Positions 2,858 to 10,872 of a stretch of 64,000 nucleotides of DNA are shown here, one piece after another. The notes beneath the pieces were generated by a model. The model made no database searches, had not been told where the DNA came from, and worked only from the letters and a program-made list of their open reading frames with translations. A program made the translations under genes and the position numbers. The DNA lies in the NCBI RefSeq assembly GCF_056712565.1, contig NZ_CM160072.1; one strand, 5' to 3'. Positions within the stretch are counted from its first letter, which is position 1; each line of letters begins with the position of its first letter.

Positions 2858-4507
2858 ATGGAAATCTTCTTCACCATACTGATAATGACCCTCGTGGTCT
2901 CGCTGTCCGGGGTGGTCACTCGTGTCATGCCCTTTCAGATCCCGCTTCCGCTTATGCAAATCGCCATCGGTGCGCTACTGGCGTGGCCGACGTTTGGTTT
3001 GCATGTGGAGTTTGATCCTGAACTCTTTTTAGTCTTGTTTATCCCGCCGTTGCTGTTCGCTGATGGCTGGAAAACGCCGACCCGTGAATTTCTCGAACAT
3101 GGGCGAGAGATTTTCGGCCTCGCGCTGGCGCTGGTGGTGGTCACCGTGGTCGGCATTGGCTTCCTTATTTACTGGGTGGTGCCGGGCATTCCGCTGATCC
3201 CCGCCTTTGCGCTGGCTGCGGTGCTTTCTCCGACCGATGCTGTAGCGCTCTCCGGGATTGTTGGCGAGGGGCGCATCCCGAAAAAAATCATGGGCATTTT
3301 GCAGGGCGAAGCGTTGATGAATGACGCCTCCGGCCTGGTGTCGTTGAAGTTTGCCGTGGCAGTGGCGATGGGGACAATGATCTTCACCGTCGGCGGTGCG
3401 ACGGTCGAATTTATGAAAGTGGCAATAGGCGGTATTCTCGCCGGTTTTGTGGTGAGCTGGCTGTATGGTCGCTCGCTGCGATTCCTCAGCCGCTGGGGCG
3501 GTGATGAACCCGCGACGCAGATCGTTCTGCTGTTCTTGCTGCCATTCGCTTCTTATCTGATTGCGGAACATATTGGCGTTTCCGGCATCCTCGCTGCGGT
3601 TGCCGCCGGGATGACCATCACCCGCTCCGGTGTGATGCGCCGTGCGCCGCTGGCAATGCGCCTGCGCGCAAACAGCACCTGGGCGATGCTGGAATTTGTC
3701 TTTAACGGCATGGTGTTCCTGCTGTTAGGTCTGCAGTTGCCGGGGATTCTGGAGACGTCGCTGATGGCGGCAGAAATCGACCCTAACGTCGAAATCTGGA
3801 TGCTGTTTACCGATATTATTCTGATATATGCGGCGCTGATGCTGGTCCGTTTCGGCTGGCTGTGGACGATGAAAAAGTTCAGCAACCGCTTCCTGAAGAA
3901 GAAGCCGATGGAGTTTGGTTCGTGGACTACACGAGAAATCCTGATCGCGTCTTTCGCCGGGGTGCGTGGGGCGATCACTCTGGCCGGTGTGCTCTCTATC
4001 CCGCTTCTCTTGCCGGATGGTAACGTCTTCCCTGCGCGCTATGAGTTGGTGTTCCTGGCGGCTGGCGTCATTCTCTTCTCATTGTTTGTCGGCGTGGTGA
4101 TGTTGCCTATTCTGCTACAACACATAGAAGTCGCGGACCATTCGCAACAATTGAAAGAGGAACGTATTGCACGAGCGGCAACGGCAGAAGTGGCGATTGT
4201 GGCGATCCAGAAAATGGAGGAGCGTCTGGCGGCGGATACCGAAGAGAATATCGATAACCAGCTGCTCACAGAGGTTAGTTCTCGCGTCATTGGTAACCTG
4301 CGTCGTCGCGCCGATGGACGTAATGATGTAGAAAGTTCAATCCTGGAAGAGAACCTGGAGCGTCGCTTCCGTCTGGCGGCATTGCGTTCTGAACGTGCTG
4401 AACTGTACCACCTGCGCGCCACGCGGGAGATCAGTAACGAAACGCTGCAAAAATTACTGCACGATCTCGATTTGCTTGAAGCGTTGCTGATTGAGGAAAA
4501 TCAGTAA
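2858..4507 (+). CDS. yjcE: Putative Na+/H+ exchanger, CPA1 family
   Basis: 549-aa membrane ORF with a charged C-terminal cytoplasmic domain; synteny. Confidence 0.85.
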   Translation: MEIFFTILIMTLVVSLSGVVTRVMPFQIPLPLMQIAIGALLAWPTFGLHVEFDPELFLVLFIPPLLFADGWKTPTREFLEHGREIFGLALALVVVTVVGIGFLIYWVVPGIPLIPAFALAAVLSPTDAVALSGIVGEGRIPKKIMGILQGEALMNDASGLVSLKFAVAVAMGTMIFTVGGATVEFMKVAIGGILAGFVVSWLYGRSLRFLSRWGGDEPATQIVLLFLLPFASYLIAEHIGVSGILAAVAAGMTITRSGVMRRAPLAMRLRANSTWAMLEFVFNGMVFLLLGLQLPGILETSLMAAEIDPNVEIWMLFTDIILIYAALMLVRFGWLWTMKKFSNRFLKKKPMEFGSWTTREILIASFAGVRGAITLAGVLSIPLLLPDGNVFPARYELVFLAAGVILFSLFVGVVMLPILLQHIEVADHSQQLKEERIARAATAEVAIVAIQKMEERLAADTEENIDNQLLTEVSSRVIGNLRRRADGRNDVESSILEENLERRFRLAALRSERAELYHLRATREISNETLQKLLHDLDLLEALLIEENQ

Positions 4508-4542: not shown

Positions 4543-5427
4543 TTACTCTGGCGTTAACCAGTATCCTTCACAACAGCTCAGCCACGCGTGGGCAGAGTGG
4601 GAAAGGTAAACGCCCTCACGCCAAATCATTCCTAATTTCCAGCTTAGTTCGCTTTCCAGCGGTAGCCATTTTAAGGTGTTTTTATCTAATCGCTGGCAAA
4701 TGGGTTCCGGCAATATGGCTATTCCGACACCGGCCTGAACCATCGCGGCGAGAAAATCCCATTGCCCGCTGCGAACTGCAATTCTCGGCTTAACGCCATG
4801 TTCATCGAATAACTTCATCAATTGCTTACTTAAGGCAAAATCTTCGTTATAGATAAGTAGAGGATGTTCCGCCAATGTCTCCGGTGAGACGGCATCACAT
4901 TCAAGCCATTTACCTGAATGTGGCGTCAGTACACATAGTGGATGACTAAACAGCGATAACGTTGTCAGGCCGCTTTCTTCTACTGGCAGGGCTGTCAGTG
5001 CCATATCCAGTTCACCGTTCATCACCGCTTGTTGTACCGTCAGACCACCAAACTCCGAAATTTTCAATTCTACGCCGGGGTAACGCTGGCGAAAAAGGCC
5101 AATCGGCCCGGCCATCAACATCCCAACCATCGGCGGGATTCCCAGCCGCAAAACGCCGGTTTTAAGCTGATTGATATCGCTAAGCTCAGCTTCCAGTTGC
5201 CGAAACTCAGCCAGTAAAGCCAGCCCGCGCTCAAATACGACGCGACCAGTATCAGTGAGAAGCAGCCGACGACCATCGCGGATCAACAATATACAGTTCA
5301 GCTCATCTTCGAGATTCTTCAGCATCTTGCTGATAGTTGGTTGGGTGACAAACAACTTCTCCGCTGCGCGGGTGAAGCTTTGCTGGCGCACGACTTCGAC
5401 AAAATAACGCAGCGTTCTGATATCCAT
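4543..5427 (-). CDS. LysR-family transcriptional regulator
   Basis: 294-aa ORF; N-terminal MDIRTLRYFVEVVRQQSFTRAAEKLFVTQPTISKMLKNLE is a typical LysR helix-turn-helix; divergent from the LrgA-like gene. Confidence 0.85.
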   Translation of the reverse strand: MDIRTLRYFVEVVRQQSFTRAAEKLFVTQPTISKMLKNLEDELNCILLIRDGRRLLLTDTGRVVFERGLALLAEFRQLEAELSDINQLKTGVLRLGIPPMVGMLMAGPIGLFRQRYPGVELKISEFGGLTVQQAVMNGELDMALTALPVEESGLTTLSLFSHPLCVLTPHSGKWLECDAVSPETLAEHPLLIYNEDFALSKQLMKLFDEHGVKPRIAVRSGQWDFLAAMVQAGVGIAILPEPICQRLDKNTLKWLPLESELSWKLGMIWREGVYLSHSAHAWLSCCEGYWLTPE

Positions 5428-5530
5428 AACTATTCCCTTTGACTATACCTGCAATGATTTTAATTCATTTCAGTCAGGGGCGAGCGCTCTCTATACTTAC
5501 CATTCTGTTTTATTTTCAGGATATCCTCTC

Positions 5531-5941
5531 ATGCCCGTGGCGCTTCGCCGCATTACCCCTGCCGTAGTGCAATCTATCCAGGTATTTTTTCAGGTTGTGC
5601 TGTATGCAGGTTTATTTATTTTTGCGCAGTATCTCGTCTCCTGGCTGCATTTGCCGCTGCCTGCCAACCTGGTGGGGATGATCCTGATGCTGGCGCTGAT
5701 TGTTTGTCGCATTCTTCCTCTGCAATGGGTTCGAGCCGGGGCGCGTTGGCTATTGGCCGAAATGTTGCTGTTTTTTGTCCCTGCCGTGGTGGCTGTGGTG
5801 AACTATGCACAACTATTACTGGTGGATGGCTGGCGTATTTTTGCTGTGATCGCGCTGAGTACGGTGATGGTGCTGGGCACGACTGCCTGGGTAGTGGAAA
5901 AAGTCTATCGCTATGAAATGCGCAGGTTAAACCGTGGCTAA
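5531..5941 (+). CDS. LrgA/CidA-family small membrane protein
   Basis: 136-aa ORF with about four hydrophobic segments; ATGGCTAA overlap with the downstream LrgB-like gene. Confidence 0.75.
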   Translation: MPVALRRITPAVVQSIQVFFQVVLYAGLFIFAQYLVSWLHLPLPANLVGMILMLALIVCRILPLQWVRAGARWLLAEMLLFFVPAVVAVVNYAQLLLVDGWRIFAVIALSTVMVLGTTAWVVEKVYRYEMRRLNRG

Positions 5942-6623
5942 TTTTCAGCTAAGTATGCTCTGTCTGGCAATTACGCTAGTTATCTATTTTCTTAACAAAC
6001 GCCTTTATCGCCGCTTTCGTAAATTGCCATTGATGCCTCTGGTGCTGACGCCTACGCTACTGGTTATGCTGCTGGTTTTTGGCAATATTTCCTGGCAAAA
6101 CTATATTGGCGAAGCGCACGGGTTACTATGGCTATTAGGTCCGGCCACCATCGCCTTTGCGGTACCAGTGTATGACAATCGGGCGATCATTAAGCGTCAC
6201 TGGATGTCGTTGACGGCAGGCGTACTGACGGCAACGGTGGTGGCAGTGACCAGCTCAGTGTGGCTGGCGCGATTGTTTACCCTGCCAGATGAGATCCAGC
6301 GTAGCCTGGCGGTGCGTTCGGTCACTACGCCATTTGCTTTGGCAGCGAGCCAGTCGCTCGGCGGACAGCCTGATCTGGTGGCGCTGTTTGTGGTGGTCAC
6401 CGGTGTGTTTGGCATGGCGATTGGCGACGTGTTGTTTTTACGTCTCTCTATTCGCGAAGGGATGGCGAAAGGTGCTGGATTCGGCGCGGCATCTCATGGT
6501 GCCGGGACTGCGCGGTCATATGAACTGGGTCAACAAGAAGGCGTAGTTGCAAGCCTGGTCATGATGCTTTCAGGTGTATTGATGGTATTGGTTTCGCCGC
6601 TGGTGGCCAGGATGATGTTCTGA
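5934..6623 (+). CDS. LrgB/CidB-family membrane protein
   Basis: 229-aa polytopic membrane ORF, overlaps the LrgA-like stop by 8 nt (translational coupling). Confidence 0.75.
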   Translation: MANFQLSMLCLAITLVIYFLNKRLYRRFRKLPLMPLVLTPTLLVMLLVFGNISWQNYIGEAHGLLWLLGPATIAFAVPVYDNRAIIKRHWMSLTAGVLTATVVAVTSSVWLARLFTLPDEIQRSLAVRSVTTPFALAASQSLGGQPDLVALFVVVTGVFGMAIGDVLFLRLSIREGMAKGAGFGAASHGAGTARSYELGQQEGVVASLVMMLSGVLMVLVSPLVARMMF

Positions 6624-6661: not shown

Positions 6662-8625
<1,964 letters not shown>

Positions 8626-8913: not shown

Positions 8914-10872
8914 TTACGATGGCATCGCGATGGCCTGCTTCTCTTCAAGCAGCTTCTCGACTACGCCAGGATCGGCAAGCGTCGAGGTATCGCCCAGGTT
9001 GCTGGTATCGCCCGCCGCAATTTTGCGCAGAATACGGCGCATAATTTTGCCGGAGCGGGTTTTAGGCAGGGAGTCGGTCCAGTGCAGCACGTCTGGCGTC
9101 GCCAGCGGGCCAATCTCTTTACGCACCCAGTTGCGGACTTCTGCGTACAGTTCTGGTGACGGTTCCTCCCCGTGATTAAGCGTGACGTAGGCGTAGATCG
9201 CCTGACCTTTAATATTGTGCGGAATACCGACCACAGCGGCTTCGGCAATTTTCGGATGCGCCACCAGCGCCGACTCAATCTCTGCCGTCCCCAGGCGGTG
9301 ACCGGAGACGTTCAGCACGTCGTCCACGCGCCCGGTGATCCAGTAATAGCCATCTTCATCGCGACGCGCGCCGTCGCCGCTGAAATACATATTTTTGAAG
9401 GTGGAGAAGTAGGTCTGCTCAAAACGTTCGTGATCGCCAAACAGAGTACGCGCCTGACCCGGCCAGGAGTCGGTGATCACCAGACTGCCTTCGGTGGCCC
9501 CCTCCAGCGGGTTACCTTCGTTATCGACCAGCGCTGGTTGCACGCCGAAGAACGGACGTGTTGCCGAACCGGCTTTCAGCTCGGTAGCGCCAGGCAGTGG
9601 CGTGATCATGAAACCGCCAGTTTCGGTCTGCCACCAGGTGTCGACCACCGGGCATTTCTCATTGCCGATCTTCTTCCAGTACCACTCCCACGCTTCCGGG
9701 TTAATTGGCTCGCCCACGGAACCGAGAATGCGCAGCGACGAACGGTCGGTGCCTTCGATCGCTTTATCGCCTTCCGCCATCAGCGCGCGAATCGCCGTGG
9801 GCGCGGTATAGAGAATATTGACCTGATGCTTGTCCACCACCTGCGCCATACGGGCAGGCGTCGGCCAGTTCGGTACGCCTTCAAACATCAGCGTGGTCGC
9901 GCCGCAGGCCAGCGGGCCATACAGCAAATAACTGTGTCCGGTAACCCAGCCCACATCGGCGGTGCACCAGTAGATGTCGCCCGGATGATAATCAAAGACA
10001 TATTTAAAGGTCAGCGCCGCGTACACCAGATAACCGCCGGTAGTGTGCAGCACGCCTTTTGGCTTACCGGTAGAACCGGAGGTATAGAGAATAAACAGCG
10101 GATCTTCGGCGTTCATCTCTTCCGCCTGGTGCTGATCGCTGGCTTGCTCAACCAGGTCGTGCCACCACAGGTCGCGCCCTTCCTGCCAGTCAATTTTTCC
10201 GCCAGTACGCTTCAGTACCACCACATGCTCTACGCTGGTGACGTTCGGGTTTTTCAGCGCGTCATCAACGTTTTTCTTCAGCGGAATACTACGCCCGGCA
10301 CGCACACCTTCGTCGGAAGTGATCACCAGTCGTGAACTGGAGTCGATAATGCGTCCGGCAACGGCTTCCGGCGAGAAGCCGCCGAAAATCACCGAATGTA
10401 CCGCGCCAATGCGGGCGCAGGCCAGCATCGCGACCGCGGCTTCCGGTACCATCGGCATATAAATCGCAACTACGTCACCTTTTTTAATGCCCAGTTCGAG
10501 CAGGGTATTGGCGAAGCGGCAGACGTCGCGGTGCAGCTCTTTATAGCTAATATGTTTGCTCTGGCTGGCGTCGTCGCCTTCCCAGATGATGGCGGTACGA
10601 TCGCCGTTTTCTTGCAGATGGCGGTCAAGGCAGTTTGCCGCCAGATTCAGCGTGCCGTCCTCGTACCATTTAATGGACACATTACCGGGGGCAAAGGAGG
10701 TGTTTTTCACCTTCTGGTACGGTGTGATCCAGTCGAGAATTTTTCCCTGTTCGCCCCAGAAGGTATCTGGTGCGTTAATAGATTGTTGATACATCGCCTC
10801 GTACTGCTGAGGGTTTATCAGGCAACGGTCTGCGATGTTGGCAGGAATGGTGTGTTTGTGAATTTGACTCAT
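8914..10872 (-). CDS. acs: Acetyl-CoA synthetase (AMP-forming)
   Basis: 652-aa ORF recognised along its whole length as E. coli Acs. Confidence 0.95.

Follow-up and report, generated by a model that had tools for sequence, protein, structure and literature searches.

Does the short AT-rich inverted repeat between a LysR-type regulator gene and the divergently oriented lrgA gene serve as an operator that controls both promoters, as the initial annotation proposed? The repeat was analyzed within a 64,000-nucleotide stretch of DNA (the window), which is matched at 100% identity by complete Escherichia coli chromosomes including ATCC 11775 and NU14.

A CidR-like regulator gene divergent from lrgAB on an accessory island

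The regulator gene and lrgA are separated by a divergent spacer of 103 bp (Table 1). The starts assigned to the LysR gene (5427, minus strand) and to the LrgA-like gene (5531, plus strand) agree with the open reading frames and both start codons are kept in orthologues. Together with lrgB these genes form a module (4543-6623) placed between yjcE and actP. At least 80% of the segment 4400-6700 was covered in 1035 of 5426 complete E. coli genomes (~19%) and the flanks were matched in 5421, and the LysR-lrgA-lrgB module was therefore taken to be an accessory island. The top NCBIfam match of the LysR protein was the CidR family NF047520, with a score of 286.2 bits and an E value of 2.5e-85. As the equivalog cut-off of this family is 415 bits and was not reached, we refer to the protein as CidR-like without assigning it equivalog status. 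Literature searches on this LysR regulator in Enterobacteriaceae or in Pseudomonas (PA3433) returned nothing relevant, and reviews and a related paper on CidR stated no binding motif.

Table 1. Genes and predicted regulatory features of the locus, in window coordinates.
Feature	Position	Strand	Remarks
yjcE, Na+/H+ antiporter gene	2858-4507	+	
LysR-family regulator gene, 294 aa, CidR-like	4543-5427	-	ORF; RefSeq protein WP_000354953.1, named "LysR family transcriptional regulator"
Predicted site 2, distal, T-N11-A, ATTCC-N5-ACTAT	5432-5446		centre 5439 (~-65); overlaps ribosome-binding sequence of the LysR gene
Predicted site 1, promoter-proximal	5454-5468, T-N11-A at 5455-5467		centre 5461 (~-43); core ATGA(T/G)TTTAATTCAT
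Candidate -10 TAAAAT of LysR gene promoter	5457-5462	-	inside site 1; read from the sequence, low confidence
Putative weak -35-like TTCAGT	5469-5474	+	3/6 to TTGACA; abuts site 1
Probable -10 TATACT of lrgAB promoter	5492-5497	+	94-97% conserved; predicted start ~5504
lrgA, CidA/LrgA-family membrane protein gene, 136 aa	5531-5941	+	ORF; homologues with Pfam PF03788
lrgB, LrgB-family membrane protein gene, 229 aa	5934-6623	+	8-nt overlap with lrgA; homologues with Pfam PF04172
actP, acetate symporter gene	6662-8311	-	

The repeat has the form of a LysR-type box

Positions 5453-5469 read AATGATTTTAATTCATT, in which AATGA (5453-5457) and its reverse complement TCATT (5465-5469) flank a spacer of 7 nt, so the inverted repeat is present as originally annotated. 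With the inner TT/AA pairs counted, 7 of 8 pairs of the dyad match. Within the repeat the 13-mer TGATTTTAATTCA (5455-5467) has the T-N11-A form with 5 of 6 pairs symmetric, the best such match in the 103-bp spacer, and in the 15-mer of site 1, ATGATTTTAATTCAT, 6 of 7 dyad pairs are symmetric. This T-N11-A form agrees with the LysR-type box (PMC11495319). The repeat had also been described as centred between the two gene starts; its centre at 5461 in fact lies nearer to the LysR ATG (34 nt) than to the lrgA ATG (70 nt).

Perfect 5-N7-5 repeats occurred 69 times in the window as compared to ~62.5 expected. The repeat alone is therefore no rarer than chance, and its significance comes from conservation and phasing rather than from its form. 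The pattern derived from the family, ATRA-N6-KTCATTT, had its sole match in the 64-kb window at 5454-5470. Two looser copies of the box were set aside. The copy at 10858-10872 (3 mismatches) is coding and lies in the acs start codon region. The copy GTGTTTTTAATTCAT at 41751-41765 (2 mismatches), ~55 nt upstream of an rpiB-like ORF (41819-42268), agrees with the box in its right half and in the spacer, and has neither the ATGA left half nor a phased -10; it was treated as a chance match.

The core of the repeat is conserved throughout Enterobacteriaceae

Orthologous loci were collected by scanning one genome per species, yielding 80 loci with LysR proteins 80-100% identical to the query. These loci came from Enterobacteriaceae including Citrobacter, Enterobacter, Salmonella arizonae, Kluyvera, Kosakonia, Trabulsiella and others. 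A homologous-protein search, which returned only relatives at least 82% identical, added nothing beyond this set. Alignment of the 77 distinct intergenic sequences revealed a block, ATGAKTTTAATTCATTTC (5454-5471), in which 17 of 18 columns were at least 96% identical. The sole column below 96% was 5458, which is T or G, giving ATGA(T/G)TTTAATTCATTTC as the conserved block across species, and the sequence on either side of it varied freely. As a neutral baseline, the frequency of the major allele averaged 0.66 over 37 four-fold-degenerate sites of the LysR gene, with no site reaching 0.96; the remaining columns of the spacer likewise averaged 0.66. Judged from this alignment, purifying selection on the block is extreme. 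Position 5453 is A or G, so that the repeat loses its outermost pair across species, and the conserved unit is therefore ATGA-N7-TCAT followed by a TTTC tail (5454-5471).

The LysR gene was opposite lrgAB in 75 of the 80 orthologous loci. Among the five loci that had lost lrgAB, the box was intact in three (L008, L073 and L076) and carried two substitutions in the other two (L074 and L077), where it looks as if it were decaying after loss of its target. In L008 the LysR gene is separated from actP by an HNH-like ORF.

The box is phased with a conserved -10-like hexamer

A second conserved island, C-TATACT-G (5491-5498), was evident on the lrgA side of the box, with the hexamer reading TATAAT in four species. 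The plus-strand (lrgA) reading of this hexamer is the better one because the opposite strand would put A or T at the most critical end position, and among the -10 candidates TATACT alone fits the position of the conserved GGA (5519-5521) of the ribosome-binding site. The spacing from the box to TATACT was exactly 23 nt in all 72 distinct sequences having lrgAB. Distances to the start codons varied, with indels found between the box and the LysR ATG as well as between TATACT and the lrgA ATG. The putative -35-like TTCAGT is separated from TATACT by 17 bp and is overlapped by the conserved TTTC tail (5468-5471); TTnA recurs at the -35-like position in distant loci.

A promoter and terminator scan of 5300-5700 returned no sigma-70 promoter and nothing else above thresholds. 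The lrgAB promoter is thus deduced from conservation, and the -65 and -43 numbering used here is taken from the conserved -10-like hexamer. The blank scan is consistent with an activator-dependent lrgAB promoter. For the LysR gene, the candidate -10 TAAAAT on the minus strand also fell below detection by the scanner, and the variable column 5458 is its least constrained position. ACTAT (5442-5446) was considered as a -10 of the LysR promoter and is less likely to be this than the right half of site 2 described below, as distant loci have GCAT or GAAT there.

Two further features were noted around the lrgA promoter. In 5486-5498, GCTC-n-C before TATACT and the G after it are conserved beyond the need of a -10, and in several distant loci TCT likewise precedes the -10 hexamer; this extra conservation could be a further weak contact of the regulator or a promoter-specific feature. 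A perfect 10-bp palindrome, AGGATATCCT (5518-5527), covers the lrgA ribosome-binding site. It is probably fortuitous because orthologues keep just its GGA.

The box accompanies distant homologues of the regulator

Distant homologues were obtained by a search of 50%-identity cluster representatives followed by contig look-ups, giving ten loci with LysR proteins 38-70% identical to the query. The box was found in the same orientation to the LysR gene in eight of these loci (Table 2) and was not found at the other two (L091 and L093). When the spacers were shuffled, the consensus was matched as well in 0-3 of 2000 shuffles for five loci and in 16-64 of 2000 for the other three. In all eight box-bearing loci a TAnnnT hexamer starts 26 or 27 nt past the C of TCAT. 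Taking these loci together with three of the five lrgAB-less orthologous loci, the box co-occurs with the LysR homologues whatever the target gene.

Table 2. Distant loci carrying the box, with the counterparts of site 2 listed for four of them.
Locus	LysR identity	Box and flanks	Neighbour	Site 2 counterpart
L081	70%	AATAATTTTAATTCATTTC	lrgAB	
L085	48%	TATGGAAAGAATTCATTTT	lrgAB	ATGCCAGAATGGAAT
L082	46%	AATAATTATAATTCATTTT	lrgAB	ATGCCATATTGGCAT
L087	45%	CATGATTTTAAGTCATTAC	acetyl-CoA hydrolase/transferase	
L089	42%	CATGATTTTAAGTCGTTAT	acetyl-CoA hydrolase/transferase	
L090	41%	CATAATTTTAATTCATTTT	lrgAB	ATTCCAATATCGAAT
L094	40%	CATAAAAATAATTCATTTT	lrgA	ATTCCATTACTGAAT
L092	38%	GATGGTTATTATTCATTTT	small ORF (record CP000931.1)	

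Two of the loci, L087 (1755-2010) and L089 (1635-1880), have the LysR gene divergent from a PF02550 gene and carry a T-to-G change in the box (AAGTCAT and AAGTCGT). The LysR proteins of these GTCAT loci read VTQSTVSKM as compared to VTQPTISKM, a Ser for the Pro that opens the recognition helix. This co-change is suggestive of protein-DNA covariation, as seen in a single lineage made up of two related clusters. The acetyl-CoA hydrolase/transferase targets of these two homologues hint at an acetate-related regulon.

A second site lies 22 bp from the box

A second T-N11-A sequence, ATTCCCTTTGACTAT (5432-5446, T5433...A5445), was found on the LysR side of the box. It lies exactly 22 bp LysR-ward of the box in all nine loci compared (the window and the eight distant loci). 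A scan of offsets from -45 to +45 singled out -22, where AT[GT] occupied the first three positions in all nine loci and seven of the nine fitted AT-N11-AT, with other offsets reaching 3 at most. The counterpart in L082 is a near-perfect palindrome. Among the Enterobacteriaceae the two halves of this site (5432-5436 and 5442-5446) were 91-100% conserved, a conservation that is confounded by the overlap with the LysR ribosome-binding sequence.

A predicted site at this position accounts for the conserved ACTAT (5442-5446), for the stronger-than-needed conservation of TATTCC (5431-5436) and for the TATTCC-duplicating insertions of two orthologous loci. These insertions, 32 bp in L030 and 16 bp in L031 (aligned to 5438/5439), are tandem duplications of TATTCC(GGAAGA) that leave one TATTCC at the LysR ribosome-binding position and another in TATTCC-N5-ACTAT beside the box.

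Dyad symmetry in Enterobacteriaceae was 6 of 7 pairs at the proximal site as compared to 3 of 7 at the distal site, and the proximal site was also the more conserved. A strong proximal site is the reverse of the textbook layout, where the -65 site anchors. The repeat was also considered as a canonical single -65 site, which is impossible as the GGA at 5519-5521 leaves no room for it, and a separate -65 site was found. The proposal that the repeat is a LysR-type operator is thus supported by box form, conservation, phasing and association with the regulator, and was incomplete in that the repeat appears to be one half of a bipartite operator.

Discussion

Taken from sequence comparison, the 5453-5469 repeat is almost certainly half of a predicted operator through which the CidR-like LysR protein controls lrgAB and its own gene. 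We put the probability of the whole model, a bipartite operator at 5432-5468 used by the CidR-like LysR protein for lrgAB activation and autorepression, at roughly 0.8. From the observed sequence, conservation, phasing and regulator-family association we infer LysR binding, the start sites, activation rather than repression, and the inducer. Most likely, the adjacent CidR-like LysR protein would bind sites 1 and 2 as a dimer of dimers. LysR-type regulators have a regulatory site at about -65 and an activation site adjoining the -35 (PMC11495319). With site 1 placed against the weak -35, the regulator could contact RNA polymerase and would activate lrgAB upon co-inducer binding. Acetate or excess glucose leads CidR to activate cidABC and B. 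subtilis YwbI to activate ywbHG (PMC10332168, PMC9204165, PMC4462622), and by analogy an overflow carboxylate, for instance acetate or pyruvate, is the probable co-inducer here. Contextual hints to the inducer come from the adjoining actP-acs genes and from the acetyl-CoA hydrolase/transferase genes beside some homologues. The -10 and start of the LysR gene itself would fall within ~5440-5470, under the 37-bp operator. As the operator would cover the promoter and 5' end of the LysR gene, binding should repress this gene.

The same operator could serve the opposite function at lrgAB, with LysR acting as a repressor that excludes RNA polymerase at site 1 until inducer frees it. Site 1 ends at about -37, touching the -35 hexamer, and uninduced LysR-type regulators repress, some being ligand-induced repressors (review PMC11495319). 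However, a poor -35 (3/6) and the lack of an extended -10 are typical of activator-dependent promoters, CidR and YwbI, the closest relatives to have been characterised, both activate their targets, and a -65/-43 arrangement is the one seen with activating LysR-type regulators. We therefore regard repression of lrgAB as unlikely, though it is an explanation that deserves to be kept in mind.

It is considerably less probable that the block is bound by another protein, such as Cra, Fur, IHF or ArcA, or that it is the core promoter of the LysR gene with no LysR site. The block is AT-rich and includes a good -10-like TAAAAT on the minus strand, and its TGA...TCA half-sites loosely resemble those of Cra and Fur. 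Its spacing, however, is unlike that of CRP (N6), Cra (12-bp core) or the 7-1-7 form of Fur, and the box accompanies LysR homologues of as little as 38% identity, whether the context is rich in GC or in AT and with differing targets. The second dyad exactly 22 bp away also speaks against another factor, and 17 invariant positions far exceed the need of a plain promoter.

A chance AT-rich inverted repeat without function would agree with the number of perfect 5-N7-5 repeats in the window, but this reading is effectively refuted by conservation and distant recurrence: the block is near-invariant among 77 species-level sequences in which neutral sites have reached saturation, its spacing to TATACT is fixed, and shuffled spacers of five distant loci hardly ever match as well. 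Equally far-fetched is a role as a hairpin within an mRNA leader (5' untranslated region), such as that of the LysR mRNA. Although the repeat can be paired into a 5-bp stem around a 7-nt loop, its folding energy was no better than that of shuffles (z = -0.15 and -0.02 on the two strands), an Rfam search gave no match, the loop was conserved as much as the stem and compensatory variation was absent.

With the bipartite LysR operator as the preferred reading, the locus can be set beside known systems. In kind, the feature is an ordinary LysR-type divergent-promoter operator, unusually well supported by cross-species conservation. As in the operators of BenM/CatM (ATAC-N7-GTAT), CbnR and OxyR (PMC11495319), the boxes are T-N11-A sequences with imperfect dyads, whereas the half-sites differ from those of BenM/CatM, being ATGA/TCAT at the proximal site and ATTC/CTAT or ATGC/GCAT at the distal site. 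The two sites, 22 bp or about two helical turns from each other, would centre near -65 and -43 if TATACT is the -10, which would match the layout of classical LTTR operators. As in those operators, the divergent promoter is shared with the regulator gene, and negative autoregulation is expected. Unlike in classical LTTR operators, it is the proximal and not the -65 site that is more symmetric and conserved in Enterobacteriaceae, and the sites described here are known from sequence.

A LysR regulator beside CidA/LrgA-type and LrgB-type genes is also found in S. aureus CidR-cidABC and B. subtilis YwbI-ywbHG. The present locus differs from CidR-cidABC in having no cidC, in its Gram-negative host and in being an accessory island beside actP-acs; by family score and gene neighbours the LysR protein resembles CidR, to which it is related without being an equivalog. 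The target class, LrgA/LrgB, is shared with the lrgAB/pftAB genes of Firmicutes controlled by LytSR/LytST. In those systems a LytTR response regulator binds direct repeats, in contrast to the LysR-type protein and dyad T-N11-A operator of this locus.

The recurrence of the box beyond lrgAB leads us to a more tentative proposal, which we think could well be wrong. The bipartite motif ATKCC-N5-nGnAT, 7 bp, ATRA-N6-KTCAT, 20-21 bp, TAnnnT may define an undescribed regulon of a CidR-like LysR subfamily widespread among Proteobacteria that would govern the handling of overflow carboxylates, via LrgAB-type transporters or via acetyl-CoA hydrolase/transferase depending on the lineage. Its high-affinity anchor would sit, unusually, at -43, and in E. 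coli it would be represented by the accessory module (~1/5 of complete genomes) inserted next to actP-acs, which serve in acetate scavenging.

The function of LrgAB-type proteins is debated, with these proteins seen either as holin-like death effectors or as carboxylate transporters. LrgAB-type proteins are reported to act in pyruvate uptake or facilitated transport in S. mutans and B. subtilis (PMC6790026, PMC5626966). Of modest interest here are a bipartite motif found across the regulator family, a proximal site that is the stronger one, and the acetate/pyruvate link of an accessory E. coli island. The present findings provide a precise predicted operator (5432-5468) and a promoter model for an uncharacterised regulator/LrgAB module. 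A defined operator and regulator in a tractable Gram-negative would ease finding the inducing metabolite and the regulon, and the family-wide motif enables regulon prediction across many Proteobacteria.
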